Positions 4,093 to 36,366 of a stretch of DNA of 64,000 bases are shown here, piece by piece. The stretch is taken from contig DAIDHL010000001.1 of the NCBI GenBank assembly GCA_027459745.1, positions 13,828-77,827 of the forward strand. Reading direction: 5' to 3'. The DNA comes from Candidatus Levyibacteriota bacterium. GTDB taxonomy: Bacteria; Patescibacteriota; Microgenomatia; Levybacterales; UBA12049. A program made the position numbers and the translations under genes. The stretch's first letter is position 1; the number at the start of each line of letters is the position of its first letter. The notes beneath the pieces were generated by a model. That model saw nothing but the letters and a program-made list of their open reading frames with translations. It did not search any database and had not been told where the DNA came from.

Positions 4093-4093
4093 T

Positions 4094-4855
4094 ATGAAAA
4101 AACTATCATTCATAACCTCAACTTTTAATGAAGAGAAGAACTTAGTTGATTGTCTTGAATCAATTAAGGATATCGCTGATGAGATTATATTGGTTGATGG
4201 GAGTTCCCAGGATAAGACGGTACAAATTGCTAAAAAATATGGGGCAAAGGTAAAAGTGACTGATAATCCACCAATTTTTTTGATCAACCGACAAAAAGCC
4301 ATCGATATGGCAACTAAAGATTGGATTCTCAATCTAGATGCTGATGAGAGGATTACTCCTGAATTGGAGAAAGAGATTAAGGATGTTTTAAAAGACGATA
4401 ATGGAAGTTTTAACGGGTATTGGATTCCCCGTAAGAATTGGTACTTGGGACGTTATTTAATGAAAGGTGGGGTATACCCTGATTATCAGTTAAGATTATA
4501 TCGCAAAGGAAAGGTTCATTTCGCACTCAAAGACGTTCATGAACAGGCAATTGTTCAAGGAAAGGTGGGTTATTTGCAACATCCTATGATTCATTTATCA
4601 GATCCTGAGTTTAAACGTTATATATTACGATTAAATCGTTATACTGACCGTATAGCAGATGAGTTAGCAGATAAACATATCGGAAAAGACCCCTTTACAG
4701 CCTTTAACTATTTTTTTATTAAACCGCTTTGGTGGTTTATTTTAACTTATGGAAGACATAAGGGTTTTATGGATGGATGGCAAGGATTGGTATTCTCTTT
4801 TTTTTCAGCTTCGCGTTTTTCAGTTGCTTATTACAAGTACCTTAAAATTAAATGA
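4094..4855 (+). CDS. Glycosyltransferase family 2 (GT-A fold).
   Basis: N-terminal GT2 signature (LSFITSTFNEEKNLVDCLESI...ILVDGSSQD...NLDADE), with the DxD-like motif DAD. Confidence 0.7.
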   Translation: MKKLSFITSTFNEEKNLVDCLESIKDIADEIILVDGSSQDKTVQIAKKYGAKVKVTDNPPIFLINRQKAIDMATKDWILNLDADERITPELEKEIKDVLKDDNGSFNGYWIPRKNWYLGRYLMKGGVYPDYQLRLYRKGKVHFALKDVHEQAIVQGKVGYLQHPMIHLSDPEFKRYILRLNRYTDRIADELADKHIGKDPFTAFNYFFIKPLWWFILTYGRHKGFMDGWQGLVFSFFSASRFSVAYYKYLKIK

Positions 4856-6429
4856 ATGTAAAAAACCTCAATTTAATACTATCCTATTTTCATAAAAATT
4901 GGCTACTAATATTTTTTATTGGGCTTACAATATTGGGACTTTATTTAAGATTTTATAACCTGCCTCTGAGAGTCGAATTAGGTGAAGATAACGGTCGTGA
5001 TATATCCATAGCCAAAGAAGCACTACTTAGGCATGAGCTACCTTTAATTGGATCTTTTAGCTCAGCTGGGCCTTTTGTTTTTGGTCCAATATATCTTTGG
5101 ACCCTTATGTTTAGTTTTGTTTTAATTCCTTCTTTTTACGCTCCATGGATTATCCTTGGCCTGCTAGAAATTATCACAGTAGCTGTTAGTTACTTAATCG
5201 GCTTAAGATTGGGAGGTAAATTGTCTGGTTTGATAATATTCTTTCTAGCAATCTTATCGCCTCAGTTGGTAGACAGTTCAACATACCTCATGCAGCATTC
5301 TTTTGTGGGATTATTTTCACTACTTAGTTTATTATTTTTTATCTTACTGTGGCAAGTTAAAAAAAATATATTTTCTTTGTTTTTAGGTTTAAGTGTAGGG
5401 GCAGCTATTAGCTTCCATTATCAGGCTATCAATTTACTAGTCGTCTTACCTTTTATATTTTTTATACCACAAATTAAATGGCCAAAGAAAATATTTATAG
5501 TCTTTCTTTTCTTCTTAGGATTATTTCTTACTCTTATGCCCTTATTTATATGGGATTACCAGCAGAAATTTGCCAATTTTCGCAATATTTTAGATTATTT
5601 TCTAATCGCTCAATACAGGATATATGTACCAAATAGTTGGAAGTTATTTATGTTTAGTTATGCTCCTAATTTTTTGAGTTATATTTCCGGGGGTAATAGT
5701 TTAATATTTTTTTATGAGTTCATAATAATCATCATTTCCGGAGTTTTGGCGTGGTATAAGAAAAGTTTCAATAATATCCTTATATCTATAATATTTATGT
5801 TTGTGCTTCTTTTAATACTAAATCGTTATTACAGGGGAGAAAGATCAGAAGGGTACTTATATTATTTTGTCCCTTTCGTTCTGATATCAGTTGGTATGTC
5901 CATCTCTTATATCTTTAGATATATATATCAGATTAATAAACGTTATTATGTTGCTGTGGCATTTTTGATAATTAGCTTACTAGTCATAGGAGTAGGAGAT
6001 TATTTGCGGATGCAAAAGGTGCCCTACTCAGGAATCTCAGTTACTCAAAGAGGAGATCAAATCATTAACTCTATAACTTCTAAGTTTCCAGGTCAAAAGT
6101 TTAGTTTATACGATTATAGAGCTAAATCTATAAATACGACAGCCTATCTAAGTGTAATTATGACAGATAAAAATTTATTAACTGAAAACGGAGTACCTAT
6201 CGGTGTAGCCAATATAAAAGATTATACGAAAGTCTCTCTTCCTATAATTTTTAAAAATGGTGAAGTTTATTTTGTAGATCTTAGTTCTCTACATATAAAA
6301 AGAACAAATAAAAATTGGGAAAAAATGAATCAAGCAGATATTTATGATACATTGATTGGTTGGTCTAATAAACATGAACTAACTTCTACATTTGATTTAA
6401 ATAGTTATCTCTTATCAAAATTTAAATGA
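4852..6429 (+). CDS. Polytopic membrane protein, candidate GT-C-type glycosyltransferase; tandem paralog 3 of 4.
   Basis: Carries the motif GEDNGRD...HELPLIGSFSSAGPFVFGPIYLW. Its C-terminus (DIYDTLIGWSNKHELTSTFDLNSYL) is conserved with the ORF at 6426. Confidence 0.5.
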   Translation: MNVKNLNLILSYFHKNWLLIFFIGLTILGLYLRFYNLPLRVELGEDNGRDISIAKEALLRHELPLIGSFSSAGPFVFGPIYLWTLMFSFVLIPSFYAPWIILGLLEIITVAVSYLIGLRLGGKLSGLIIFFLAILSPQLVDSSTYLMQHSFVGLFSLLSLLFFILLWQVKKNIFSLFLGLSVGAAISFHYQAINLLVVLPFIFFIPQIKWPKKIFIVFLFFLGLFLTLMPLFIWDYQQKFANFRNILDYFLIAQYRIYVPNSWKLFMFSYAPNFLSYISGGNSLIFFYEFIIIIISGVLAWYKKSFNNILISIIFMFVLLLILNRYYRGERSEGYLYYFVPFVLISVGMSISYIFRYIYQINKRYYVAVAFLIISLLVIGVGDYLRMQKVPYSGISVTQRGDQIINSITSKFPGQKFSLYDYRAKSINTTAYLSVIMTDKNLLTENGVPIGVANIKDYTKVSLPIIFKNGEVYFVDLSSLHIKRTNKNWEKMNQADIYDTLIGWSNKHELTSTFDLNSYLLSKFK

Positions 6430-7994
6430 AAAAAATTATTAAAAGTTTTAACTCACATTGGTATTTTTTCACAATAATTTTAATAATTATCATAGCGGGA
6501 ATAATAAGATTCTATAGCTTTAATACTTCCTGGGGGATTGGGGGGACAGACACACCCAGGGATATAATGATTTCTTCAATCGCTTTACATAGACACGAAT
6601 TACCCTTAATTGGACCTTTCAGCTCAGCCGGTCCATTTGTAACTGGACCTTTATATTTTTGGATATTAATGCCGGCAATGCTTTTCTTGCCCTTTTCTTT
6701 ATCTGCACCATTTATTTACTTCATAATGCTATCGTTACTTTTTATATTAATAATGATTTTATTAGGAAAATATTTAGTAGGAGAAATGTTTTCTTTGTTA
6801 TTGGGAATTATTGTAACATTTAGTCCCGAGAGTATTCTCTCTTCCTATACACTTAATAATCCAAACCTGGTTCCTTTATTTACTGCTCTATCTTTGTTGT
6901 TTTTCGTAATGCTAATTTATAAGCAAAAGTGGTTATATGCATTATTAATGGGATTGAGCGTGGGTATAACAATTAGCTTACATTATCAAGGTTTAAATTT
7001 ATTAATTATGATTCCTCTAATACTGGCTATTTATAATATTAAACTGCTTAACCGTTTATTTAGTTTTTTACTCTCAATTATAGGACTAATAATAACTTTT
7101 ATCCCAATTATGATTTGGGACAGCCAACAAGGTTTTGCAAATATACGTAATGTGTTGGATTATTTTTTGATAGGCCAATATAGAATGTATGTACCCAACA
7201 GCTGGAAGATTTTCTTATTAAACTTTATGCCAGATCAGTGGGCTAAAGTAATCGGAGGTTTTTATATTATAAGTCTCGTACTTATGATTTTTACACTATT
7301 TTATATCTCGTATTTATTTATAAAATTCAAAAAACAAAAACTAGAGCTAGAGTTACTTGCTATAATTTTTGTGATTTTAATTGTCGTAAACCGCTTTTAC
7401 CACGGCCTGCGACAGGAATCGTATGTGTTATATTTTTCGCCATTTATTCTTTTATTCTCCACTTTGGCTATTTATTATTTATTTATTACTATTAGGAATA
7501 AATTCAAAAATATTCCTTACATTTTTAATATCCTAGGAGGGGTTTTTATTTTATTAGTCTTAGGTTCTGGTTTACTTAGTATTGAAAATAGTTTTATTAA
7601 ACCTCAGTACCAGATGAGTAATTTAAATAATTCTGTCAATAAATTAACATCATTATACCCCCATGATAAGTTTTTGGTATTTGATTATAAAAATATGCAG
7701 AATGGTAAAAGTATGCTTTTAAGTCTGGAATTATATCGCAGGGGTTTGGAGGCCCCTCAAGGAGTAAGAATTGGCACAAGTTGCGATGCTTCCTGTGCAG
7801 TTGGGTATAGGAAATTAAATATAAGTGATTTGAATCTCGTAGAAATTCCCAAGATTGTTAAAATTAGTCAGATAGACTGGGTAAATGATAATGCGGATAA
7901 TAATTATGACCTTTTGATCGGATGGTCTAAAAAACATTTACTAAAATCCAGTTTCGATTTAAGCCAATACCTTAAAATGAGTGGCGCTAAGTGA
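6426..7994 (+). CDS. Polytopic membrane protein, candidate GT-C-type glycosyltransferase; tandem paralog 4 of 4.
   Basis: Carries the motif GGTDTPRD...HELPLIGPFSSAGPFVTGPLYFW. Its C-terminus (NYDLLIGWSKKHLLKSSFDLSQYL) is conserved with the ORF at 4852. Confidence 0.5.
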   Translation: MKKIIKSFNSHWYFFTIILIIIIAGIIRFYSFNTSWGIGGTDTPRDIMISSIALHRHELPLIGPFSSAGPFVTGPLYFWILMPAMLFLPFSLSAPFIYFIMLSLLFILIMILLGKYLVGEMFSLLLGIIVTFSPESILSSYTLNNPNLVPLFTALSLLFFVMLIYKQKWLYALLMGLSVGITISLHYQGLNLLIMIPLILAIYNIKLLNRLFSFLLSIIGLIITFIPIMIWDSQQGFANIRNVLDYFLIGQYRMYVPNSWKIFLLNFMPDQWAKVIGGFYIISLVLMIFTLFYISYLFIKFKKQKLELELLAIIFVILIVVNRFYHGLRQESYVLYFSPFILLFSTLAIYYLFITIRNKFKNIPYIFNILGGVFILLVLGSGLLSIENSFIKPQYQMSNLNNSVNKLTSLYPHDKFLVFDYKNMQNGKSMLLSLELYRRGLEAPQGVRIGTSCDASCAVGYRKLNISDLNLVEIPKIVKISQIDWVNDNADNNYDLLIGWSKKHLLKSSFDLSQYLKMSGAK

Positions 7995-8055: not shown

Positions 8056-9024
8056 ATGAATATTCTTGTGACAGGTGGAGCAGGCTATATTGGCAGTATA
8101 ACGGTTCGTAGGCTACTCAAAGAAGGGCATAACGTTACAGTCTTTGATAATTTAGTCTATGGCCACAAGGAGAACGTAGACTGTCCTCTTATTGTGGGTG
8201 ATCTGACTGATAAAGAATTCCTATTTAGTTCTTTAAAAGATAAGCAATTCGATGGAGTTATTCATTTTGCTGCCTATGCCTATGTAGGAGAATCAATGCA
8301 AAATCCTTACAAATATTTTTATAGCAATTTGAATGGCGGTTTAAATCTACTAGAATATATGGTTGCCCGAAAGATTTCTTCGATTGTTTTTTCTTCCAGC
8401 TGTACTGTATTTGGTACTCCCAAGCAACTTCCAGTTAAAGAAACTGATCCGCAAGATACTGAAAATGTTTATGGAGAGACAAAGCTAATGTTTGAAAAAA
8501 TGCTGGTCTGGTATGACAAAATATTTGGTATTAAATCAATTATTCTACGGTATTTTAATGCTTCTGGGGCAGCTTTAGACGGAAGTTTAGGTGAAAATCA
8601 TAACCCTGAGACTCATATCATTCCTATAGCTCTTCAAGTGGCTCAGGGCAAGAGACAAGAGTTTGAAATGTATGGTAATGATTATGATACCCCTGACGGG
8701 ACATGCATTCGTGATTATATACATGTTGAAGACCTGGCTACCGCCCATATTTTAGCTCTTCATAAGTTAGCAAATGATAAAATCAGTGATAATTTTAATT
8801 TGGGTACAGGCCATGGGTATTCTAATAAAGAAGTTATTTCCATGATTGAAAAAATCACTGGCAAACAAATTCCTGTAATTTTTAAACCCCGAAGATTTGG
8901 TGATGCTCCAGCTATTTATGCCGATAATTCTAAAGCTAAGAATATACTTGGATTTACGCCGGAGCATTCAGATTTAGAAACCATTATTTCTACAGCCTGG
9001 GATTGGCATAAAAAGAGCAGTTAA
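8056..9024 (+). CDS. galE: UDP-glucose 4-epimerase.
   Basis: The N-terminus MNILVTGGAGYIGS is a Rossmann GxxGxxG motif. The active-site YGETK motif is present, and overall GalE-like SDR architecture runs along the whole length. Confidence 0.85.
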   Translation: MNILVTGGAGYIGSITVRRLLKEGHNVTVFDNLVYGHKENVDCPLIVGDLTDKEFLFSSLKDKQFDGVIHFAAYAYVGESMQNPYKYFYSNLNGGLNLLEYMVARKISSIVFSSSCTVFGTPKQLPVKETDPQDTENVYGETKLMFEKMLVWYDKIFGIKSIILRYFNASGAALDGSLGENHNPETHIIPIALQVAQGKRQEFEMYGNDYDTPDGTCIRDYIHVEDLATAHILALHKLANDKISDNFNLGTGHGYSNKEVISMIEKITGKQIPVIFKPRRFGDAPAIYADNSKAKNILGFTPEHSDLETIISTAWDWHKKSS

Positions 9025-14061: not shown

Positions 14062-15162
14062 ATGATAAAACTTAGCAAGCCATACATAGATAACCGTGAG
14101 ATTGATGCGATAAAAGCAGTGATGCTGTCATCAAACTTGGTACAAGGAGAAAAAGTTAAAACATTTGAGTATAAATTTGCTAGGGAAGTTAAAACTAAAT
14201 TCGCTATAGCAGTCAATAATGGAACTTCTGCTTTACACACTGCCCTCCTGAGTTTAAATATTGGAGAAGGTGATGAAGTTATAACAACTCCATTTACCTT
14301 TGTTGCTACTGCCAATGCTATTTTAATGACTGGTGCCAAACCTGTGTTTGTAGATATAGACGAAAGAACATTCAATATTGATTTCAATTTGATTGAGAAA
14401 AAAATAAATAAAAAAACCAGAGCCATATTAGCTGTAGACTTATTTGGTCAGCCAGCAGATTATGATGAAATAAATAAAATAGCCAAAAAGTACAAGTTAA
14501 ATGTTATTGAAGATGCGGCTCAATCAATCGGAGCGAAATATCATGGTATACCTGCTGGTTGTCTATCTGATGTTGCATGTTTTTCTTTATATGCTACTAA
14601 AAATATTATGTCAGGTGAGGGTGGAATTATAACTACTCAGAACGAGGACATTAATCTAAAAGCCAGAATGATTAGAAATCATGGACAAAAAGAAAGTGAA
14701 AGATATACTTACAACTGTTTGGGTTACAATTATAGAATGATGGATTTACAAGCTTCAATTGCATTGGAACAGCTTAAAAAACTTTCATACATTAATAAAA
14801 GAAGAAGAGAGATAGCAAAAATTTATGATAAAGAATTAAAGGGAATAAAAGGATTAATTACGCCTGTTATCAAACAGGGTAACTTATCGTCTTATCATCA
14901 ATACACTTTGAGAATTACTAATGAATTTAAGGAAAGTAGAGATACTCTTAAAAGCGACATGGAAAAAAATGGAATTTTAACAGGTGTATATTACCCAATA
15001 CCCTTGCATTTTTTTAAGCATTTAAATTTACATAACTATAAAAAAGGTGATTTTCCTATTGCAGAAATGATTGCAAATGAAGTATTATCGATACCTATAC
15101 AGCCTTTACTAACATCTAATGAAGTACTTGATGTTATTAAATTTTTGAGAAACTATGCGTAA
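14062..15162 (+). CDS. DegT/DnrJ/EryC1/StrS-family PLP-dependent sugar aminotransferase.
   Basis: LSKPYIDNREIDAIKAVMLSSNLVQGEKV...AIAVNNGTSALHTAL...YATKNI. The conserved Lys region typical of nucleotide-sugar aminotransferases is present. Confidence 0.8.
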   Translation: MIKLSKPYIDNREIDAIKAVMLSSNLVQGEKVKTFEYKFAREVKTKFAIAVNNGTSALHTALLSLNIGEGDEVITTPFTFVATANAILMTGAKPVFVDIDERTFNIDFNLIEKKINKKTRAILAVDLFGQPADYDEINKIAKKYKLNVIEDAAQSIGAKYHGIPAGCLSDVACFSLYATKNIMSGEGGIITTQNEDINLKARMIRNHGQKESERYTYNCLGYNYRMMDLQASIALEQLKKLSYINKRRREIAKIYDKELKGIKGLITPVIKQGNLSSYHQYTLRITNEFKESRDTLKSDMEKNGILTGVYYPIPLHFFKHLNLHNYKKGDFPIAEMIANEVLSIPIQPLLTSNEVLDVIKFLRNYA

Positions 15163-16213
15163 TAAAAGTCAAATAAAAAAACATAAGGTCGGAATAATTG
15201 GATGTGGGGCAATTTTCTCAAGACACATACAAGCTATAGAGATAAATAGGAATAATTATAGTTTAGTTGCAGTTTGTGATATTGACGAGAAAAAACTAAA
15301 AGAAGCGACAGAGAAATATAAGGTTAAAGGATACTTAGACTACAAACAAATGCTTAAAGAACTTCAAGGGGAAATGGATTTTGTAGTCATTGCAACTCCT
15401 AACTCTTTACATTATGAACAGGCAATTGCATCTATAAAAAATGGCTACGATGTTTTGATAGAAAAACCCATTGCACTTGACTCAAAAAAAATTATATCTA
15501 TTGCAAATTTGAGTAAAAAGTTGAAAAGAAAAGTCTATGCGGTTCTTCAAGTAAGGTATAATCCTACAATTTCTATAATGAAAGACGTATTGCATAAAAA
15601 ACTTCTAGGTAATTTAAGATCAGTTTCTTTAGTACAAAGATGGCAAAGACCAGTTTCATATTTCCATACTTGGAGAGCTGATGTTAGTATTGGAGGAAGA
15701 ACACTATTTGAAGTGGGAATACATTATCTGGATATATTACAATATTTATTTGGTATGCCTGAAGTAGTTGCAACTACTACATTTAAACATAAGCACAAAA
15801 ATATAGATTTTGAAGACACAGTTTTTTCAATTATTCTTATTAATAAAACTATTTCTGGTTCTATAGAAGTTACAATTGCTGCAGAACCAGAGAATCTAGA
15901 ATGCTCTATATCGATTCTTGGAGAGAATGGTTTTATAAAAATAGGTGGTAAAGCTCTGGATAAAATAGAAGATGTAAAGTTTATTAACAAAAAAAATAGA
16001 CTTAAATGGGAGGAGATAAACAAAAAATATAAACCTGCAGTTGCACCCAATTCTTATGGCACTCATTTAGGTTCTTGCCCAAATCATCCTGATATCTATC
16101 GTGAAATAGCATTTGGTAGAGGTATCGATATTACCGAAGCCATAGCATCAGTAAAGTTAATTGAGGATATATATAATAAAGAATTAAAAACAAAAACCCT
16201 TTCGTCAAGGTAA
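15155..16213 (+). CDS. Gfo/Idh/MocA-family NAD(P)-dependent oxidoreductase, a candidate nucleotide-sugar dehydrogenase (WbpB-like).
   Basis: N-terminal Rossmann motif KVGIIGCGAIFSRH and EKP motif (VLIEKPIAL). It lies immediately downstream of the DegT aminotransferase. Confidence 0.75.
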   Translation: MRNKSQIKKHKVGIIGCGAIFSRHIQAIEINRNNYSLVAVCDIDEKKLKEATEKYKVKGYLDYKQMLKELQGEMDFVVIATPNSLHYEQAIASIKNGYDVLIEKPIALDSKKIISIANLSKKLKRKVYAVLQVRYNPTISIMKDVLHKKLLGNLRSVSLVQRWQRPVSYFHTWRADVSIGGRTLFEVGIHYLDILQYLFGMPEVVATTTFKHKHKNIDFEDTVFSIILINKTISGSIEVTIAAEPENLECSISILGENGFIKIGGKALDKIEDVKFINKKNRLKWEEINKKYKPAVAPNSYGTHLGSCPNHPDIYREIAFGRGIDITEAIASVKLIEDIYNKELKTKTLSSR

Positions 16214-16223
16214 TCTCATCGCT

Positions 16224-16937
16224 ATGCGCACCAAGAATATAATGCTCTTTGCTTACGATTTTCCTCATAAAAAAACACAAGATTTTTTATTTAGACTTAT
16301 TATTGAAAAATATAATATAAAATATGTAATCGCGGCTCCTAGAATAAAACTTAATATTCCTGAATCACCTCAAAGAATTACTCCTATTAATGAAGGACTA
16401 ATACATCCTCGAACAATTTGTGAATATTTTCAGATACCATATTTTGTAAGTGGTCACAACGAAGAAAAAGCGATTAACATTATTAACAAATACCCAGTTG
16501 ATTTATATATTATTGCAGGTGCGAGAATACTAAAAAAAAACGTTATCAGCGCTGCTAAAAATCGAGTAATAAATGTTCATCCTGGATTATTGCCAGAGGT
16601 AAGAGGTTTAGATACAATTTTATGGTCTATAATCGAGAATAAACCTATAGGTATATCAGTACACTTCATTAGCACTAAAATGGATCTAGGTAGGTTAGTT
16701 TGTAAAGAAAAATTGGAACTTCGTCAAGATGACGACATTAAAGATGTTTCTTTAAGATTACTGGAAAAACAAACTGATGTACTAATAAAAGGACTTAATT
16801 TACTTCGTAAAATGACCTTAAAAGAGCTTAATAAAAATGAACTGAAATCAAATAATTATCATTCAAAAATGTCTCAAAAACTTGAGAAACAGGCTTTAGG
16901 TAACTTTAATGAATGGCTAAAATCAAATACGGGATGA
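16224..16937 (+). CDS. Formyltransferase-domain protein, candidate sugar N-formyltransferase.
   Basis: NVHPGLLPEVRGLDT resembles the Fmt/PurN/ArnA formyl-transferase catalytic motif (HxSLLPxxRG). The protein is about 240 aa. Confidence 0.55.
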   Translation: MRTKNIMLFAYDFPHKKTQDFLFRLIIEKYNIKYVIAAPRIKLNIPESPQRITPINEGLIHPRTICEYFQIPYFVSGHNEEKAINIINKYPVDLYIIAGARILKKNVISAAKNRVINVHPGLLPEVRGLDTILWSIIENKPIGISVHFISTKMDLGRLVCKEKLELRQDDDIKDVSLRLLEKQTDVLIKGLNLLRKMTLKELNKNELKSNNYHSKMSQKLEKQALGNFNEWLKSNTG

Positions 16938-18058
16938 AAATACTTATTATTACACCAGCCTTCTCTGGAGGAAGTTGGGTTTGTATAGAAAGATTAATAG
17001 AAAATTTAAAAAGAAAATACAAGATATCTATTATAGGACTTGGAAAAGTAGTACAAACAATAAATAATGTTGAGATTAAAAATATACCTTATCCTAGATA
17101 CGACCGATGGGCTAGAGTTGCAGGAGTTGGAGTTAGTCCCTTTATCTCTTTTGCCTGGAATTTGCCACTGTTAGTATTAAGCATAATTAAGTTATTTAGT
17201 TACAAGCCAGATCTAATTATAATAAATGGTTTTACAACAGGTCTGTTAATTTCGCCCTTAGCTAATTTACTCAAAATTAAGACTGTAGTATCATTTCATG
17301 GATTTATATCTGGGCATTTGAGTGGTATAGGTCAGTCTTATGCAAGATTATTAGCCAGGAGCGTTGACTTAGCGATTGTGAACTCTGAAGGAGCTAAAGA
17401 TGATGTAAGCCTTATTATGAGTAGTGATAGAATAATTATAAATGAACATTTTGCTGATGATATTTTCTTTAAAGGCATAATAAAAAAACATAAGTTTAAA
17501 AAGCTTATAATTTCCTATGTGGGTAGACTTGATATAGAAAAGCTATGTAGAACACTTGTCGATATTGCAGAAGATAAACAAAATGATTCTAGGTTCGAAT
17601 TTAATTTTGCAGGCGTAGGTGAATTAGAAGAAAGAGTAATTTCTTTGACAAAAAAGTCAAAAAACATTCATTATTTAGGTTACATTAAAGATAGATTAAT
17701 GCTTAAAAAGCTTTATGAAGGAACAGATATCCTTTGGACATATGCTGATGTTACGTATCTAGCTCTTCCTGCCATTGAAGCTCTTGCTTGCGGTGTTCCA
17801 ATTATGGTGACTGATAAGTCAGTAGTTCCTAATAAAAAACTTATAAACAAAGTAAACAAAAAATTAGTCCCAAAAGAAATTGGATGGCTTATTGATGCTA
17901 ATAAGAAAGATGATATACTTCGTATTATGGAAAAAATTGCAGAAAATCCCTCACCATATTCTATGAAGGAGAACTGTAGGAGATACGCTATGAAAAAATA
18001 CAGTAAATTCAATCTGCATAGCTCGATAAGTAAAATCAATAGTTTGATAATGAAATAA
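16913..18058 (+). CDS. Glycosyltransferase family 4 (GT-B).
   Basis: LPAIEALACGVPIMVTD motif and N-terminal GT4-like domain. Confidence 0.65.
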   Translation: MAKIKYGMKILIITPAFSGGSWVCIERLIENLKRKYKISIIGLGKVVQTINNVEIKNIPYPRYDRWARVAGVGVSPFISFAWNLPLLVLSIIKLFSYKPDLIIINGFTTGLLISPLANLLKIKTVVSFHGFISGHLSGIGQSYARLLARSVDLAIVNSEGAKDDVSLIMSSDRIIINEHFADDIFFKGIIKKHKFKKLIISYVGRLDIEKLCRTLVDIAEDKQNDSRFEFNFAGVGELEERVISLTKKSKNIHYLGYIKDRLMLKKLYEGTDILWTYADVTYLALPAIEALACGVPIMVTDKSVVPNKKLINKVNKKLVPKEIGWLIDANKKDDILRIMEKIAENPSPYSMKENCRRYAMKKYSKFNLHSSISKINSLIMK

Positions 18059-18060
18059 AT

Positions 18061-19173
18061 ATGAAAAAAAAGATAGTTTATATACTTGGTACTCGGCCAG
18101 AAATTATACGCTCAGCGGCAATTATTAATAATCTTAGGAATGATAAGAGCGTCGATTTTAAAGTTGTACATACAGGTCAGCATTACGATTTCCTAATGAA
18201 TGATATCTTTTTTAAAGAACTGGGGGTGCAACCACCTGATATTAATTTGAACATTGGCTCTATATCGCCTGCTAGTCAAATTTCTCGAATGATTCTTAGC
18301 CTCGAAGAATATTTTACAAAATTCAAGCCAGATGAGGTATGCGTTTTTGGTGATACTAATTCTTCTCTTGCTGGAGCTTTAACTGCATTGAAAATGAAAA
18401 TTACTCTAACGCACTTAGAAGCGGGTTTTAGAGATCGAGAAATGGATATTCCTGAAGAAACAAATCGTATTATGATTGATCATGTTTCTAATCTTTTACT
18501 ACCAGTTTCTGATATCTGTAGAAAAAATTTAATAAATGAAAAAGTCTCTGGAAAGGTTGTGGTTGTTGGAGACCCGTTATTTGATGTATTTGAGAACTCA
18601 CTATTAGATGTCAGTCTAACCACTTCACTAAAAAAAATAAAATCTCATGAAGATGACTATATATTAGTAACATTACACAGAGATAAAAATGTTGATGACC
18701 CTCTGAAACTAGAGAAAATATTAAATGCATTTGGAGAATTATCTAATTTGAGATTTATTTTTCCTGTTCATCCCCGAACAAGGATCGGTATAGAAAAACT
18801 GAAAAAACTTAATACTAGATTTAATAATATAGAATTAGTTGATCCATTAGGATACAAAAAAATATTAGAATTAGTAATGAATTCTAAGCTTGTTATTACA
18901 GATTCCGGAGGTTTACAAAAAGAAGTTTTCTGGTGCAATAAGCCCTGTTTAATTCTTAGAGATAATACAGGATGGATTGAGCCTGTAAATTATAAAGTCA
19001 GTTTTCTTTGTAAGTTAGAAACTAAAGAAATTATATCACAAATTTATTATGTTATTAACAATTACAAAACAATTATGAACAGATTTAGCAAGTTGCAAAA
19101 TCCATATTTTAAAAAAAACAATACGATTAGAATTGTTAATTTAATAAAAGACTATGCTGGCAGACAATGGTAA
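18061..19173 (+). CDS. wecB: UDP-N-acetylglucosamine 2-epimerase (non-hydrolysing).
   Basis: ILGTRPEIIRSAAII...VHTGQHYD...GDTNSSLAGALTALKM; these are canonical WecB/MnaA motifs. Confidence 0.85.
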   Translation: MKKKIVYILGTRPEIIRSAAIINNLRNDKSVDFKVVHTGQHYDFLMNDIFFKELGVQPPDINLNIGSISPASQISRMILSLEEYFTKFKPDEVCVFGDTNSSLAGALTALKMKITLTHLEAGFRDREMDIPEETNRIMIDHVSNLLLPVSDICRKNLINEKVSGKVVVVGDPLFDVFENSLLDVSLTTSLKKIKSHEDDYILVTLHRDKNVDDPLKLEKILNAFGELSNLRFIFPVHPRTRIGIEKLKKLNTRFNNIELVDPLGYKKILELVMNSKLVITDSGGLQKEVFWCNKPCLILRDNTGWIEPVNYKVSFLCKLETKEIISQIYYVINNYKTIMNRFSKLQNPYFKKNNTIRIVNLIKDYAGRQW

Positions 19174-21484
19174 TAAAATGTTCTCAATTATTCCTTCCAA
19201 AAAACAGTCGTTTTATATCTCTATACTGAACGTTTTAAGTATAGTTATTATATTATGGCTTCCTTATTATTTATTCGGTGATAAGTTATATATTGGAGGA
19301 GATGACACGAAACTTCTTTATAGTTATCCATTTGATTACTTTCGTAACGTCTCATTTTTTTCCTGGTTTAGTTTATCTTCATTACCTATGTACGATTCTG
19401 CTCAATTTTCATTGCCGTTGGCATCATTATTGGCAATATTATTGATAATATTTAAAAGCAGTATAGTTATAAATCATCTCGCATTTTCCTTAACAATAAT
19501 TTTTGGACTGATATTTTTTCAATTACTAACTCAAGAAATTATAGAAAATAGTAGAAGCTATAGGATAGAAATTTTTCTTGGATCACTGTTCTATGTGTTA
19601 TCGCCTATATTGATGTTTGATCAATATTCTAATTTTTATTCGTCTGTTTGGTTAATAGGCTTAATCCCTTGTGTAGGATATTTTTATATAAAATTTTTAA
19701 AAACTAAAAAATTTAAATTTATATTTTTTAATATCATATTTTGTACATTGTTGTCTTTGGGTTTGGCGGCTATACCATGGTTATTGGGAACTTTATTGTC
19801 ACTTTTAGCAGGGATAGTATTTTTGTTTTTTAGATTAAAAAACAAATTAGAGATCATCAGTTTATCTACATATTTCTTCATCATAACTTTGCTATCACAG
19901 GCATTTTGGTTCTTACCTTTCTTTATGTCTTATCTTATTACTGGCAAAAATAATGCAGCTTCGCAAATATTTTCTGATAATATCGCACAAAGTTTTAACG
20001 GAACAGTCCTTACTACAGCTTCAGGTAATATATTTTACCCATTATTAAATCTATTTCATAGACAAATAGCCTTTGATTATAGCTGGCCTTTGGCATTAGT
20101 ATTTAAGTATTTTTATGATAAAATCTATTATTTAAATCTGGTCTATGTCTTTATACTAATGTTAGGTTTGATATTATTTAAACCTATTATTAATAAAAAA
20201 GAAACAAATGTTTATTTATTCATATTAATTTTCTTTACTATCTCCCTTTATTTTTTTACTGTTAATATCGGTCCATTAAAATATTTGTTTTTATTGTTAG
20301 GTAATTTGCCTGGTTTTGTAATGTTTAGAAATTTTTATGACAAATTTACCTTAGGATTTTGTTTGTCCTATGCTATACTTATCACTTTTTCTTTGATATT
20401 GATTATTAGAAAATATAAAAAATGGCGGTATTTTTTATTGCTTATAGTTTTTATACTAATTTTAGTAAACGCTATACCTATTAAACAGATTGTTGATAAA
20501 CCATTATGGACTGCAAAAAATACAGCAACTAATATAAACTTACCGATAGAATATTTGAATTTTCTCAATTCTGTGAAAAACAAAATTGGCACTACTGATA
20601 ATGTTCTTTCTCTTCCACTCAACTCAGCGGGATATGCAGTTATTAGCGACTCAAATTCTAAAGGAGTATATGCAGGTACGTCTCCACTAAAAATATTTAC
20701 CGGGATAAATGACTATGCTGGAGACTTGTCTTTTGGACAAATTTATTCAAATAGGATTAATAAGGATTTACAAGACAAAAACTATAAGGATTTTGAAAAT
20801 GTATTAAAAAGATTGGATATAAATTATGTGATTTTGAATAAAAATATACCTAAGAGCGTTAAACAATCATTTTTATTTTCTGGAAAATTAAAAACACAAG
20901 ATGAAAATTTCGTAAAATCAATTACAGATAAGAAGCTGCTATCTAGCAGTCACGATAATTACCAATTGTATTCTACTAAAATCCACTCTAGTATATTTAG
21001 TGGAGGAAATATTACATTCAAAAAAATAAATCCCATAGAATATCATTTAACCATCAATAAAGTTAATAATAATACTTCGTTAATTTTTGTTAACCCTTAC
21101 AACTCAGGGTGGAAACTATATCTAGATAAAAATCAATTAAAGTGCGGTCTGGTAATTCATAGCATAGATTCATCTAAGCAATGTCAAAGCCAAAATACTA
21201 TTAATTTACTTGACGATATTAAATACATAACTTCTCCCAGCTTGAATACTGTTCACATCAATTACCTTAACTATGCTAATAAATGGAAGATTAGCAGTGA
21301 AGATATTATCAAAAACTTTCCTAAAAATGATTATAGCTTAAATAAAGATGGGACAATTAATTTAAATCTTACAGTTTACTTTTTCCCACAATTTTATTTT
21401 TATCTAGGGGTTGTTATTTCTGGATTAACATTTGTTATCATATCTCTATATTTATTTTATGAAAAAATTAAACTTAAAGCTTAA
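19154..21484 (+). CDS. Large polytopic membrane protein (776 aa) with a C-terminal extracytoplasmic domain; candidate GT-C-like glycosyltransferase; paralog of the ORF at 22477.
   Basis: About 14 TM helices followed by a soluble domain of roughly 330 aa and a terminal TM. It shares the motif LGNLPGFVMFRNFYDKF with the ORF at 22477 (FNHIPGFIMFRDPTKW). Confidence 0.45.
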   Translation: MLADNGNKMFSIIPSKKQSFYISILNVLSIVIILWLPYYLFGDKLYIGGDDTKLLYSYPFDYFRNVSFFSWFSLSSLPMYDSAQFSLPLASLLAILLIIFKSSIVINHLAFSLTIIFGLIFFQLLTQEIIENSRSYRIEIFLGSLFYVLSPILMFDQYSNFYSSVWLIGLIPCVGYFYIKFLKTKKFKFIFFNIIFCTLLSLGLAAIPWLLGTLLSLLAGIVFLFFRLKNKLEIISLSTYFFIITLLSQAFWFLPFFMSYLITGKNNAASQIFSDNIAQSFNGTVLTTASGNIFYPLLNLFHRQIAFDYSWPLALVFKYFYDKIYYLNLVYVFILMLGLILFKPIINKKETNVYLFILIFFTISLYFFTVNIGPLKYLFLLLGNLPGFVMFRNFYDKFTLGFCLSYAILITFSLILIIRKYKKWRYFLLLIVFILILVNAIPIKQIVDKPLWTAKNTATNINLPIEYLNFLNSVKNKIGTTDNVLSLPLNSAGYAVISDSNSKGVYAGTSPLKIFTGINDYAGDLSFGQIYSNRINKDLQDKNYKDFENVLKRLDINYVILNKNIPKSVKQSFLFSGKLKTQDENFVKSITDKKLLSSSHDNYQLYSTKIHSSIFSGGNITFKKINPIEYHLTINKVNNNTSLIFVNPYNSGWKLYLDKNQLKCGLVIHSIDSSKQCQSQNTINLLDDIKYITSPSLNTVHINYLNYANKWKISSEDIIKNFPKNDYSLNKDGTINLNLTVYFFPQFYFYLGVVISGLTFVIISLYLFYEKIKLKA

Positions 21485-22475
21485 TCTTTTAATTAAGCTA
21501 ATTATCCTTCTCTTTTTGGTCTTATCTGGTTTGAGTCTTGCTGTAATATTTAATTCTGGTACTGCGTTGTCGGCCATTACTGTAAGCGAATCAGGGAATG
21601 AGCTAAGATTTTCTAATACTAATCAATTATATAAAGGTGATAGCTTGACTGGGGTGTTTACTGCTAAGAATAATTATTTAGGAATAATTTATCTTAAGTT
21701 TGATAACGTTAAAAACCTGGATTATTACAATCAATCAGATTTTATTTTTAGAATAAAGAAAGACGGGGATAAATCTTGGTATGCTGTAAATAAATATAAG
21801 TCTGGTATAATTTATAATAATAACTACTTTCCATTTGGCTTTCCTCCAATAAGAAATTCACAAAATCATCAATTCGTTTTCCAGATTATATCCTTGAATG
21901 GAAATAAAACAAACTTTATCAAGATAGATACCAGTGTCTTTAATTTCGCTGCAAGTTATATCATTCCCAAAAGTGAAATTACATCAAATATTAGTTCTTT
22001 AGCAATATTTTTTATTAGGAAAGCCTTTTATTCATTGAATAATCCATATTTTGTTTTGAACTCCTTGAAGTACTTCATCCCAGCTCTTTTTTACTTTATT
22101 TGGATTACCCTACTTAATCGTTTTACGCAAATAAAGTATTCTTTAAGTCTAATAAGTATAACAATGGTTATATTAGATATTGTTTTCTTAAATGACATTT
22201 ACAGCGGGATACTTTTGGGAGCAGTAGGCTTATGGATATGGTCAGTTGTATTATATAAACTTGAATATAGCTTATCAATTTTAGTATCTTTATTATTGAT
22301 ATTATTAGGTACATTAACACTTAATATCGCTAATCCTAGTATGACTGATAAGATCTCAACGTGGGGATATCTGTTTTTTGTTTCTGGAATAGGTTTGGCA
22401 ATTTATCAAAGTTCTAATACTAAATCAAATTATATTACTATGAGACGATTTTTAAAGGATTTATCTAAAATCTAA
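21432..22475 (+). CDS. Hypothetical membrane protein: N-terminal TM, central extracytoplasmic domain, C-terminal TM bundle.
   Basis: ORF track and hydrophobicity pattern. The probable start is the internal MKKLNLKLN. Confidence 0.4.
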   Translation: MLSYLYIYFMKKLNLKLNLLIKLIILLFLVLSGLSLAVIFNSGTALSAITVSESGNELRFSNTNQLYKGDSLTGVFTAKNNYLGIIYLKFDNVKNLDYYNQSDFIFRIKKDGDKSWYAVNKYKSGIIYNNNYFPFGFPPIRNSQNHQFVFQIISLNGNKTNFIKIDTSVFNFAASYIIPKSEITSNISSLAIFFIRKAFYSLNNPYFVLNSLKYFIPALFYFIWITLLNRFTQIKYSLSLISITMVILDIVFLNDIYSGILLGAVGLWIWSVVLYKLEYSLSILVSLLLILLGTLTLNIANPSMTDKISTWGYLFFVSGIGLAIYQSSNTKSNYITMRRFLKDLSKI

Positions 22476-22476
22476 T

Positions 22477-24567
22477 ATGAAACATTGGATATTTAATTTA
22501 CTTTTTCTTCTTGTAATTATTAGAATTATCTTTCATGCCTGGTTTTTACCTGGAAGCCTTAACGGTGGAGACACTTGGTATTCAACACTATTATATTATC
22601 AACAGAATGAATTGCATCTTTGGGCTTGGCTGCCTACTTCTGGTAATGGTTTAGGAGCTTTCAACGCGTTTTTTAATTGGATTAGTTTATATTACCAGGT
22701 CCCGATAGCGTTTTTAGAAGGGATTTTTCATCTAAACTTATCATGGATTGAGCGTATAGGTTTTGTCTATCCATATTTGATTGTAGGAATTATTTCATCG
22801 ATATATTTAAGCAAGCTATTTAACAGAACTTCAAGCCTGTTATTTTTATTTAGTTTGATATTCATTTTTAATACATATTCACTCATGTTAATTTCGGGGC
22901 AGGTAGAATTAGCTTTAGCTTATGTCTTATCAGCATGGATTGTGTATCTTTTCTTAAATATTGTAAATAAAAGGCCAAACAGACAGACATATTTGTTCGC
23001 TTGTCTTCTTCTTTCGTTTCAAACCACAATAGACCCTAGAATTACCTACATAACTCTGTTAGCGATATTCTTATATTTTGTATTATATTTTATTCTAACT
23101 TTCCGTAACGATTATAAATTTTTTCATCGGATAATTAAGATTACATTTAAAATATTTATAATACCTGGAATCATTGATTTTTTAATAAACTCATACTGGT
23201 TACTACCGACAATAATCAATCACCAGAGTCCCCTTACTCAGTTAGGCTCTGCATATACTGAAACTGCTTCTGTGCAATATTTTAGTTTCGCAAAACTAGA
23301 AAATTCGATATCCCTACTGCATCCAAACTGGCCTGAAAATATATTTGGTTTGACACATTTTATGCAACCTGAGTTTATAATTTTGCCGATTTTGGCATTT
23401 ATCTCTTTACTGTTTATCAAAAGTGTTAATAGACAAGAAAAGATATACATTCTTTACTTTAGTCTACTTACTTTAATTGGATCCTTCTTGGCAAAAGGAG
23501 CTAATGCTCCATTGGGTATTCTTTATATGTGGATGTTTAATCATATACCCGGTTTTATTATGTTCCGTGATCCAACTAAATGGTATGTGTTAGTAGCGCT
23601 TGGATTTTCAGTATTAATTCCCTTCACTATTTTTAAAATTTATGAACTGTTAAAAACATGGGAAAACTTTAACATAAAAAAATATCTGGTTAGATTAAAT
23701 TTAAATAATAGTTTTTTTAATTTGTATAATTTATTTCTGTTTTTAGTTATTTTTTATCTACTTGTACTGATTATGCCTGCTTTATTTGGACAATTGACGG
23801 GTATGTTGAAGTCGACTCCCGTACCGATCGATTATGTCAATTTAGAAAAGTTTCTTAGTAATAAAAACAGGTTTTCAAGGACATTATGGATTCCGGTTAC
23901 ACAACGTTTTGGATATTATTCAAATACACATCCTGAAATAAGTGGAGAAAGTTTTTATAACATCTATGATCCAACGAAAGTTGTAAGTGAACTTAAATCT
24001 AATTCTGCTCAAATACAATTACAGGAAGCAGGTGTAGCATATGTAATTGTTCCTTATGATTCCGAAGGAGAAATATTTTTAAATGATCGTAAATATGATT
24101 CAAATTTATATGAGAAAACTATCGATCAGTTGAATAAGATTAAATGGCTCAAGGCTATTCCAGGTTTCGGTAGCGTAAAAGTATTCCAAGTCTCAAATTT
24201 TAAAAATCACTTCTGGTCACCCGATAAAATGTCTGTAAGTTATAAATATGTAAGCCCAGTTGAATATAAAGTTAATATAAGTAACGCCTCACATGGAGAT
24301 AAATTAGTTTTCGTTGAAGGATATGACTCTAATTGGGAGTTGGTAGATTCTAATAACCATATTATTCATTCTGGTGTATATGATCATCGATATAATAGTT
24401 TCTTGATCCCTGATAATGGCACCTACACAGTTTATTATTCCCCACAAATCTGGGTGGATAGGGGAGTAATTATTAGTCTAATTAGTTTGGGAATAAGTCT
24501 AATAATCCTCTTATATTTAACCTTTAAATCGAAGCTAAAAACTTTGTTTAAGTTCAGATTAAGCTAG
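22477..24567 (+). CDS. Large polytopic membrane protein (696 aa) with a C-terminal extracytoplasmic domain; paralog of the ORF at 19154.
   Basis: Multi-TM N-terminus with the shared PGF[VI]MFR motif and a soluble C-terminal domain. Confidence 0.45.
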   Translation: MKHWIFNLLFLLVIIRIIFHAWFLPGSLNGGDTWYSTLLYYQQNELHLWAWLPTSGNGLGAFNAFFNWISLYYQVPIAFLEGIFHLNLSWIERIGFVYPYLIVGIISSIYLSKLFNRTSSLLFLFSLIFIFNTYSLMLISGQVELALAYVLSAWIVYLFLNIVNKRPNRQTYLFACLLLSFQTTIDPRITYITLLAIFLYFVLYFILTFRNDYKFFHRIIKITFKIFIIPGIIDFLINSYWLLPTIINHQSPLTQLGSAYTETASVQYFSFAKLENSISLLHPNWPENIFGLTHFMQPEFIILPILAFISLLFIKSVNRQEKIYILYFSLLTLIGSFLAKGANAPLGILYMWMFNHIPGFIMFRDPTKWYVLVALGFSVLIPFTIFKIYELLKTWENFNIKKYLVRLNLNNSFFNLYNLFLFLVIFYLLVLIMPALFGQLTGMLKSTPVPIDYVNLEKFLSNKNRFSRTLWIPVTQRFGYYSNTHPEISGESFYNIYDPTKVVSELKSNSAQIQLQEAGVAYVIVPYDSEGEIFLNDRKYDSNLYEKTIDQLNKIKWLKAIPGFGSVKVFQVSNFKNHFWSPDKMSVSYKYVSPVEYKVNISNASHGDKLVFVEGYDSNWELVDSNNHIIHSGVYDHRYNSFLIPDNGTYTVYYSPQIWVDRGVIISLISLGISLIILLYLTFKSKLKTLFKFRLS

Positions 24568-24625: not shown

Positions 24626-25555
24626 ATGATCAGTTATGTAATTCCAGTCTACAACGAGGAAGAGAGTTTGTCCGCATTTTATAAAGAACTCAAAAAAGTT
24701 ATAAGCAAGATAAAAGATTCAGCTGAAATTATTTTTATTGATGACGGTTCTACAGATTCTTCTTTAAGATTATTAAAAGATTTATCTAAAAAAGATAAAT
24801 TTGTTAGAATATTTTCTTTTCGCAAAAATCAGGGTAAAGCAGAAGCTTTAACGCTTGGTTTTCAAAAAGCAAAAGGAGAATATGCAGTAACACTAGATGC
24901 AGATTTACAAGATCGTCCAAGTGAAATAAGTAAACTACTAAAACTTATTAAACAGGATGAGTGGGATATGGTTAGTGGATGGCGATATAAACGACAGGAT
25001 AGTAAGCAAAAAGTAATTTCCTCTAAATTTTTCAATTACCTAGCGCGTAATTTTTGGGGATTATATTTGCATGATTATAATTGTGGGCTAAAAGCATACA
25101 CCTCAGAATGCGCTAAATCTTTAAAACTGTATGGAGGTTTTCACCGTTTTATCCCACTTCTGGCTTATCAGGAAGGATTTCAGGTAACTGAAGTAGCCAT
25201 TGAACATGACAAAAGAAAATTTGGCAAGTCTAAATTCGGGTTTTCCAAGGTTTGGAAGGATCTGCCTGATATCTTTACCATGCTATTTTTGTATAAATAT
25301 AGTAAAAGACCCATGCACTTTTTTGGTATGTTGGGAGGAATAATATTTTTAATAGGTCTTGGAATTTTAATCTACTTGTCTATTATGCATTTTATTGGCT
25401 ATACAATAGGAGATAGACCGCTTTTAACTTATGGAATGCTATTTTTATTAGCCGGGTTACAATCCTTCTTGACTGGATTTTTAGCAGACCTCATAATAAA
25501 CACATCAGCCAAAGAAATTACGCATCATCCACTGCGTTTCTCGACTGATGTTTAA
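24626..25555 (+). CDS. Polyprenol-phosphate glycosyltransferase of the Dpm1/GtrB/ArnC type: a GT2 domain with a C-terminal TM pair.
   Basis: MISYVIPVYNEEESL...IFIDDGSTDSS...TLDADLQDRP. The C-terminus has two TM helices (MHFFGMLGGIIFLIGLGILIYL..., LLTYGMLFLLAGLQSFLTGFLADL), the classic architecture of polyprenyl-phosphate sugar synthases. Confidence 0.75.
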   Translation: MISYVIPVYNEEESLSAFYKELKKVISKIKDSAEIIFIDDGSTDSSLRLLKDLSKKDKFVRIFSFRKNQGKAEALTLGFQKAKGEYAVTLDADLQDRPSEISKLLKLIKQDEWDMVSGWRYKRQDSKQKVISSKFFNYLARNFWGLYLHDYNCGLKAYTSECAKSLKLYGGFHRFIPLLAYQEGFQVTEVAIEHDKRKFGKSKFGFSKVWKDLPDIFTMLFLYKYSKRPMHFFGMLGGIIFLIGLGILIYLSIMHFIGYTIGDRPLLTYGMLFLLAGLQSFLTGFLADLIINTSAKEITHHPLRFSTDV

Positions 25556-36360: not shown

Positions 36361-36366
36361 GAGATT

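Follow-up and report, generated by a model that had tools for sequence, protein, structure and literature searches.

A predicted formyl variant of the Wbp/Wlb nucleotide-sugar pathway in a glycan locus of a Candidatus Levyibacteriota bacterium

Composition of the gene cluster

A stretch of 64,000 nucleotides from a Candidatus Levyibacteriota bacterium (contig DAIDHL010000001.1; referred to here, at its full length, as the window) carries a short gene cluster which probably specifies a formamido sugar. The cluster opens with open reading frames (ORFs) for a DegT-family aminotransferase, a Gfo/Idh/MocA dehydrogenase and a formyltransferase, all on the + strand. Their coordinates are exactly those given in an earlier interpretation made from the DNA letters (the sequence-only reading), and the pairing of the first two is borne out by the Pfam matches. 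The genes at 14062-19173 are packed in an operon-like manner: DegT and Gfo overlap by 8 nucleotides (nt), Gfo and the formyltransferase are separated by 10 nt, the formyltransferase overlaps the following glycosyltransferase gene by 25 nt, and 2 nt lie between the latter and an epimerase gene. In the list, PLP stands for pyridoxal phosphate, THF for tetrahydrofolate, UDP for uridine diphosphate, GlcNAc for N-acetylglucosamine and aa for amino acids; 3N denotes the 3-amino derivative and a final A the uronic acid.

14062-15162, + strand: DegT-family PLP aminotransferase, 366 aa, PF01041; predicted WbpE/WlbC-like C-3 aminotransferase giving UDP-GlcNAc3N(A)
15155-16213, + strand: Gfo/Idh/MocA NAD-dependent dehydrogenase, 352 aa; predicted WlbA-type UDP-GlcNAc(A) 3-dehydrogenase
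16224-16937, + strand: formyltransferase of an unnamed clade, 237 aa, PF00551; predicted to N-formylate the 3-amino group with N10-formyl-THF as donor
16260-16283, + strand: clade-specific N-terminal motif FPHKKTQD, with invariant residues, outside the part matched by PF00551
16569-16607, + strand: INVHPGLLPEVRG motif holding the catalytic residues Asn117 and His119 together with the folate-site motif LLP, assigned from sequence and alignment
16677-16691, + strand: KMDLG motif with Asp154, the third residue of the triad, assigned from the alignment
16913-18058, + strand: family 4 glycosyltransferase (GT4), PF00534, PF13439 and PF13579; candidate transferase for the product sugar
18061-19173, + strand: non-hydrolysing UDP-sugar 2-epimerase of WbpI/WlbD type, TIGR00236; predicted to convert the gluco to the manno form

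The formyltransferase was identified by PF00551 (Formyl_trans_N), which matched residues 77-189 to profile positions 65-179 with 68.8 bits (cut-off 26.1; E = 6.6e-19). The sequence-only reading had suggested a check against two Pfam formyltransferase domains; this N-terminal one was found, and the C-terminal one, PF02911, gave no match in the Pfam scan. The string HPGLLPEVRG, which had been noticed as a catalytic signature, is present as residues 119-128 inside INVHPGLLPEVRG. In an alignment of 28 relatives that are 38-58% identical, Asn117, His119 and Asp154 were invariant in all 28, so that both the family match and the triad on which the earlier interpretation depended were found. P120, G121, P124, R127, G128 and G156 were invariant as well, as were F9, Y11, P14, H15, K16, K17 and D20 at the N-terminus, where, as a guess, the FPHKKTQD motif may bind the phosphates of the nucleotide sugar. 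The closest solved sequences in a phmmer search were PseJ and the LgrA (gramicidin synthetase) formylation domain, at 6-7e-12 and over the catalytic core only; the INVHPGLLPEVRG motif aligns with 'iNlHpsLLP' of both proteins, and KMDLG aligns with their 'vDtG'.

The AlphaFold2 model built on the same alignment reached a pLDDT of 93.1 and a pTM of 0.90. Foldseek returned 157 PDB matches at E<=0.001, and the top 50 all had the formyltransferase fold, comprising sugar, tRNA and glycinamide ribonucleotide formyltransferases, ArnA, PurU-type deformylases and the hydrolase domain of formyltetrahydrofolate dehydrogenase (FDH). The best of them were WbkC, Fmt, the formyltransferase domain of ArnA, VioF and PseJ (E of approximately 1e-12 to 1e-10, TM 0.53-0.69, identity 14-23%). 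From the sequence comparisons and the model, the protein is judged to be a genuine formyltransferase, probably an active one, of a separate clade; it belongs to the Formyl_trans_N superfamily and is functionally a probable sugar N-formyltransferase outside all characterised subfamilies. The likeness to WbtJ, VioF and WlaRD proposed in the sequence-only reading does not hold at the level of sequence, as those matches ranged from 1e-4 to 5e-10 and were confined to the core. The closest relatives, with 60% identity, are found in Roizmanbacteria and Daviesbacteria. NCBIfam contains no model specific to this clade, and database copies of its members are unnamed, hypothetical or called PurN or Fmt (methionyl-tRNA formyltransferase).

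The dehydrogenase is a two-domain Gfo/Idh/MocA protein, recognised by PF01408 (E = 7e-26), PF22725 and PF02894, with the dinucleotide-binding motif GIIGCGAI and the EKP motif present. The best PDB matches, over residues 9-277, were WlbA of Chromobacterium violaceum (3q2i, 7.6e-42) and of Bordetella pertussis (3q2k, 2.2e-35), compared with 9e-20 for the next unrelated match, 1e-18 for WbpB and 1e-7 to 1e-13 for inositol dehydrogenases. The top NCBIfam match was the archaeal UDP-GlcNAc 3-dehydrogenase (NF040723), with 116 bits under a cut-off of 450. The 3-dehydrogenases of Bordetella and Chromobacterium follow a sequential mechanism, and WbpB a ping-pong mechanism with alpha-ketoglutarate (PMC10622841); judged by its matches, the window enzyme belongs with the former. 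The aminotransferase matched PF01041 (DegT_DnrJ_EryC1) with E = 2e-120 and 403 bits, and the PLP-binding lysine is Lys180 in a YATKN motif. QdtB (6e-75) and WbpE (3e-68), which are both C-3 aminotransferases, were among the PDB matches; the best was 7b0d (1.2e-80), labelled glutamine-scyllo-inositol transaminase.

The sequence-only reading had placed a gene of the UDP-GlcNAc 2-epimerase family at 18061-19173, and the TIGR00236 (wecB) model agrees, with 271 bits above a cut-off of 210. In overall score, the protein was equally close to the UDP-GlcNAc3NAcA 2-epimerase of Thermus thermophilus (8sxv, 2.4e-66; NAc marks an acetamido group) and to the UDP-GlcNAc 2-epimerase of Methanocaldococcus jannaschii (4neq, 1.6e-66). 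The T. thermophilus enzyme differs from UDP-GlcNAc epimerases at three positions, with a conserved 3-OH-binding Arg exchanged for Trp307, Leu/Met for Ala18 and His/Gln for Tyr96 (Thoden et al., PMC10622841). Trp305, Ser18 and Phe96 of the window protein align with these residues, and M. jannaschii has Arg, Leu and Gln there; the Arg that hydrogen-bonds the 3-OH is thus absent from the window epimerase. Therefore, the enzyme appears to be of the type that acts last, on a 2,3-di-N-acylated sugar, and a product derived from N-acetylmannosamine (ManNAc), which the sequence-only reading had mentioned as its secondary idea, becomes the leading and best-supported prediction. The Trp signature is shared by 13 of the 14 epimerases linked to this formyltransferase family (those scoring >180 bits).

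Related loci and the surroundings of the cluster

Relatives of the formyltransferase were found in at least 151 genomes in a scan of one genome per species. These include members of the candidate phyla radiation (CPR), Chloroflexota, Deinococcota, Bacteroidota, Verrucomicrobiota, Gemmatimonadota, Spirochaetota, Bacillota and DPANN archaea, and Thermus altitudinis, Breznakiella homolactica and Defluviitalea raffinosedens are among the cultured carriers. At E<=1e-30, 332 representative clusters, formed at 50% identity, were retrieved by exhaustive profile search. Gene linkage was determined in those 37 loci whose formyltransferase was >=34% identical and which extended 3 kb or more beyond it on each side. 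For the dehydrogenase, the window Gfo was used together with three more Gfo queries at a looser threshold than tblastn at 1e-15, since the latter, with the window Gfo alone, misses WbpB-type Gfo genes that Pfam detects beside the formyltransferase in two loci (L003 and L004). Of the 37 loci, 25 had a Gfo/Idh/MocA gene at a distance of up to 3 kb and 30 at up to 8 kb; a DegT gene was present at up to 3 kb in 23, and a WbpI-like epimerase gene at up to 8 kb in 10. In most loci the formyltransferase is the sole N-acylase adjoining Gfo and DegT, and the gene tables of Daviesbacteria, Defluviitalea, Dehalococcoidia and Thermoanaerobaculia contain the same neighbours. The GT4 gene at 16913-18058 is not kept in the related loci and was rejected as a conserved partner. 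Moreover, the two activities occur in one polypeptide in both orders, Gfo-formyltransferase (P0140) and formyltransferase-Gfo (P0156), these being representative metagenomic proteins, one per order.

The most telling case is that of T. altitudinis, in which a run of genes (L043:5687-12139) has the order UDPG-dehydrogenase (the 6-dehydrogenase), Gfo, formyltransferase, DegT, flippase and epimerase. Judged by sequence, the two neighbours of the formyltransferase are the orthologues of WbpB and WbpE, and those of WbpA and WbpI are part of the run too. The Gfo protein scores 445 bits to the crystallised WlbA of T. thermophilus, the epimerase 612 bits to 8sxv, and the DegT protein is 43% identical to that of the window. 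No hexapeptide acetyltransferase was found in this run. Homologues of WbpA, B, D, E and I are all present in T. thermophilus HB27 (PMC10622841), and the formyltransferase therefore appears to replace WbpD in T. altitudinis. As a rule for all loci, strict replacement of WbpD was considered and dropped, because a hexapeptide (LbH) acyltransferase gene lies within 3 kb in nine loci and one gene (L023:4617-5933) encodes a formyltransferase fused to such an acyltransferase. The formyltransferase is therefore not always a substitute for the acetyltransferase, and loci with both enzymes may give mixed or doubly modified products.

Two further observations concern members of this clade. Four of the proteins (P0210, P0219, P0232 and P0250), of approximately 365-376 aa, carry C-terminal ankyrin repeats, an architecture known elsewhere from QdtF and FdtF, which are sugar N-formyltransferases. 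In the Daviesbacteria locus, an ATP-grasp (PylC-like) ligase gene (L001:4021-5004) stands directly upstream of Gfo, formyltransferase and DegT, with carbamoyltransferase, methyltransferase and hydrolase genes in the vicinity. This gene set suggests more elaborate modification there and, given the ligase beside the trio, aminoacyl variants may exist elsewhere.

The cluster of the window is surrounded by a long one-directional glycan locus containing family 2 glycosyltransferase (GT2) and GT4 genes, a flippase, GalE, an initiating transferase (Bac_transf) and many polytopic membrane proteins; it is followed by the cell-wall genes for MraW, penicillin-binding protein, Mur ligases and MurA. The DNA of the window is bacterial, with a G+C content of about 32%. 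Pfam and NCBIfam scans of the locus revealed neither a 4,6-dehydratase nor a 3,4-ketoisomerase, and the sole short-chain dehydrogenase/reductase near the trio (8056-9024) scores as GalE. The cluster and its vicinity yielded no amino-acid ligase, whether of the ATP-grasp or of another kind, and no LbH protein lay less than 10 kb away. The nearest LbH acyltransferase (27564-28169) is 10.6 kb away, resembles maltose/galactoside O-acetyltransferases and matches WlbB at 3e-10 only; owing to this likeness and distance it was rejected as the true N-3 acylase.

Several other features of the surroundings were recorded. The stretches 1095-7994, 19154-24567 and 29059-33745 hold numerous large ORFs for polytopic membrane proteins, in which a crude hydropathy scan counted 7-20 hydrophobic segments; these ORFs have no Pfam or NCBIfam match, or a weak one to PMT_2 (GT-C-like), and their density is unusual within a glycan locus. 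The GT2 protein at 24626-25555 has ArnC, the undecaprenyl-phosphate 4-deoxy-4-formamido-L-arabinose transferase, as its best NCBIfam match, although the 157 bits are far short of the cut-off, 529. The protein is likely to be a generic polyprenyl-phosphate glycosyltransferase, yet it is notable for standing beside a predicted formamido-sugar pathway. Two adjoining ORFs of 463 and 487 aa on the - strand (34969-37830), predicted to be soluble and without a Pfam match, run antiparallel to the neighbouring glycan genes. A DUF4012 protein of 659 aa (41867-43846) and a pectate-lyase-like protein (RHGA/epimerase; 43915-45306, - strand) stand at the downstream border of the glycan locus. Farther on, a single ORF of 631 aa (49405-51300, - strand) joins Carboxyl_trans (AccD-like) and ACCA (AccA) domains, being a fused acetyl-CoA carboxylase carboxyltransferase.

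Predicted pathway and competing explanations

Taken as a unit, the genes at 14062-19173 are best read, with a fair degree of confidence, as the Wbp/Wlb pathway in a formyl version; in its usual form that pathway leads to UDP-2,3-diacetamido-2,3-dideoxy-D-mannuronic acid (UDP-ManNAc3NAcA). The WlbA-type dehydrogenase would oxidise C-3 of UDP-GlcNAc or its uronic acid UDP-GlcNAcA, and the DegT enzyme would turn the 3-keto group into an amine. The formyltransferase would then move a formyl group from N10-formyl-THF to this amine by means of Asn117, His119 and Asp154, taking the place of the acetyl-CoA-dependent WbpD/WlbB; the N-acylation probably also draws the unfavourable oxidation and transamination forward. 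Finally, the WbpI-type epimerase would invert C-2 to give UDP-ManNAc3NFo or UDP-ManNAc3NFoA (NFo marks a formamido group); UDP-2-acetamido-3-formamido-2,3-dideoxy-mannose or the corresponding uronic acid is thus the likeliest product. As a guess, the embedded GT4 might transfer the sugar into a surface glycan. We infer the steps from oxidation to epimerisation from homology and gene linkage, and the substrate, formyl donor, order of steps, oxidation state of C-6 and fate of the product are predictions of the same kind. The general proposal of the sequence-only reading, that a WbpB/WbpE-like pair feeds an N-formyltransferase to yield a formamido sugar, gains support from the domains, the predicted fold, the triad, the synteny, the fusions and the apparent replacement of the acetyltransferase in Thermus. 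The specific products which it had named, the formamido-6-deoxyhexoses Qui3NFo, Fuc3NFo and Qui4NFo, are unlikely in a locus that yielded no 4,6-dehydratase or 3,4-ketoisomerase and in which the nearby reductase scores as GalE; for want of those two enzymes, the routes to deoxythymidine diphosphate (dTDP)-6-deoxy sugars are rejected. The 3-keto group would come from a WlbA-type enzyme acting on a UDP-GlcNAc-type substrate.

The Wbp/Wlb system, known from Pseudomonas aeruginosa (WbpA, B, E, D and I), Bordetella (WlbA-D), T. thermophilus HB27 and E. coli O180 (MndA-D), is the closest to the window cluster. PMC10622841 describes the pathway, and PMC7685785 includes it for E. coli O180. The window cluster unites the same types of enzyme: a Gfo/Idh/MocA 3-dehydrogenase, a DegT aminotransferase and a 2-epimerase of WbpI type, in which the diagnostic substitutions are found. 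It differs in having a Formyl_trans_N protein instead of the LbH N-acetyltransferase (WbpD/WlbB/MndB), in the absence of a WbpA-type 6-dehydrogenase from the 64 kb and in the predicted formyl, rather than acetyl, substituent at N-3. Lacking WbpD, and with no WbpA found, the cluster falls short of full membership in the Wbp/Wlb pathway as defined. L-RhaNAc3NFo, a 2-acetamido-3-formamido sugar, occurs in an E. coli O antigen, and in the proposed route, which is not experimentally based, UDP-L-RhaNAc3NFo is made with the formyltransferase WekD where UDP-L-RhaNAc3NAc uses the acetyltransferase WeiO (PMC7685785). The WekD/WeiO pair is a precedent both for such a sugar and for an acetyl/formyl swap through exchange of the N-acylase gene. 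Unlike the predicted product of the window, however, the E. coli sugar is 6-deoxy-L-manno and is reached via a dehydratase/epimerase and two aminotransferases, without a Gfo/Idh/MocA 3-dehydrogenase.

The characterised sugar N-formyltransferases (WbkC, VioF, WlaRD, WbtJ, QdtF/FdtF, the N-terminal domain of ArnA, PseJ and Rv3404c) share the fold and the Asn/His/Asp triad with the window enzyme and, like it, are encoded beside a sugar aminotransferase. They differ from it in sequence (14-23% identity) and in the N-terminal FPHKKTQD motif, which is specific to the clade of the window enzyme. Known enzymes act on 4-amino sugars or 3-amino-6-deoxy sugars bound to dTDP, guanosine diphosphate (GDP) or UDP, on 4-aminoarabinose (Ara4N), or on a pseudaminic acid precursor; to our knowledge, no characterised sugar N-formyltransferase acts on a UDP-2-acetamido-3-amino sugar. 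Direct action on UDP-GlcNAc also has precedents. In the lipid A pathway, the Gfo/Idh/MocA and DegT pair GnnA/GnnB acts on UDP-GlcNAc without oxidation of C-6, and the archaeal UDP-GlcNAc 3-dehydrogenase is a second example; both are consistent with the absence of a 6-dehydrogenase from the window. The products of GnnA/GnnB receive fatty acids for lipid A, not formyl groups, and the window genes are set in a glycosyltransferase and flippase locus.

Several results weigh against the proposed pathway, or against parts of it. No UDP-GlcNAc 6-dehydrogenase (UDPG_MGDP_dh) was found in any frame of the window, the closest CPR loci likewise lack it, and a UDP-sugar 6-dehydrogenase lies within 8 kb in only 15 of the 37 loci, so that the uronic acid form is no more than a candidate here. 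Owing to its absence from the window, the state of C-6 is left between the neutral sugar and the uronic acid, and the neutral UDP-ManNAc3NFo is about as likely as the acid. The aminotransferase is nearly as close to C-4 enzymes (332 bits with the PseC model; 6e-65 with perosamine synthetase); C-3 and C-4 aminotransferases are inseparable by sequence score, and the C-3 regiochemistry is therefore drawn from the context alone. The nine loci with an LbH acyltransferase gene belong here as well, and the epimerases beside the closest CPR relatives (L001, L006 and L007) are of a different type, without the Trp. In a literature search, no biochemistry was found for any member of the formyltransferase clade; nor did the search bring up GlcNAc3NFo(A), ManNAc3NFo(A) or an enzyme that produces one of them, which is weak evidence given that few carbohydrate-chemistry journals were covered.

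Among the competing explanations, the one nearest to the proposed pathway retains the same three enzymes but regards the epimerase as an ordinary WecB that supplies UDP-ManNAc separately, so that the product stays in the gluco form (UDP-GlcNAc3NFo or its acid). The match to the wecB equivalog model, the equal scores to 4neq and 8sxv and the presence of such an epimerase within 8 kb in only 10 of the 37 loci are in line with it. Nevertheless, the absence of the 3-OH-binding Arg, the Ser18/Phe96/Trp305 set where ordinary epimerases have Leu/Met, His/Gln and Arg, and the Trp common to 13 of 14 linked epimerases make it unlikely. The formyltransferase might also act on a different amine, that of a sugar-attached amino acid or a second amino group. 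N-formyl-alanyl substituents occur in some Vibrio O antigens, the ligase gene in Daviesbacteria could serve such a modification, and where an LbH acyltransferase is encoded beside or fused to the formyltransferase it could take the 3-amine. This explanation has a slim chance, however, for no amino-acid ligase turned up in the window cluster or its surroundings, the formyltransferase is the sole N-acylase by Gfo/DegT in most loci, and in Thermus it stands between WbpB and WbpE orthologues in a run without a hexapeptide gene. By analogy with the ArnA/ArnC/ArnD aminoarabinose route, the formyl group could, finally, be a transient handle instead of a permanent decoration. Formylation would pull the preceding steps forward, the ArnC-like GT2 would load the formamido sugar on polyprenyl phosphate, and the sugar would be flipped, delivered by a GT-C-like membrane protein and deformylated outside, leaving a cationic free-amine sugar on a CPR-type envelope. 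No ArnD-like deformylase was seen in the window, and we consider this course of events quite improbable.

Two explanations depart further from the proposed pathway. The Gfo/DegT pair could work on a scaffold other than UDP-GlcNAc, such as an inositol-derived aminocyclitol or a dTDP or GDP sugar, which would then be formylated. The label of 7b0d, the best PDB match of the aminotransferase, points this way, as does the match of the dehydrogenase to the myo-inositol 2-dehydrogenase (iolG) model, with 93 bits; the latter is far under the cut-off of 355, though, and the WlbA matches (7.6e-42) are far stronger than those to inositol dehydrogenases. As the adjoining WbpI-type epimerase and the Thermus operon also point to the UDP-GlcNAc series, such a scaffold is very improbable. 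It is even harder to credit that the protein at 16224-16937 is not a sugar N-formyltransferase but a stray PurN-, Fmt- or PurU-like folate enzyme, a hydrolase or an inactive relic. The same Asn/His/Asp triad does occur in PurU and in the hydrolase domain of FDH, some database copies bear the names PurN or Fmt, and the best NCBIfam matches are PurN (TIGR00639) and Fmt (TIGR00460), with about 61 bits each. These scores (61.5 against 150.1 and 61.3 against 201.5, respectively) are nevertheless far under the cut-offs, PF02911 had no match, the N-terminus is specific to the clade, and linkage and fusion to Gfo/DegT are strong across phyla. The triad and 28 columns are invariant, and decay to a relic is therefore unlikely.

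Implications

The proposed formyl variant of the Wbp/Wlb scheme would build on a pathway logic that is already known; it is not a new kind of biology and would not surprise a specialist. If it is correct, a function would be assigned to an unnamed and widespread formyltransferase clade whose members are now annotated as hypothetical or misnamed PurN/Fmt, and two features could serve as annotation rules: a formyltransferase of this clade beside Gfo and DegT, and a 2-epimerase of the Trp type. The nucleotide sugar UDP-ManNAc3NFo, or its uronic acid, would be predicted, and T. altitudinis, which is cultured and has the full gene run, would be a convenient organism in which to seek it. Moreover, an acetyl-to-formyl swap would be added to a pathway that is relevant to the diversity of O antigens and surface glycans.

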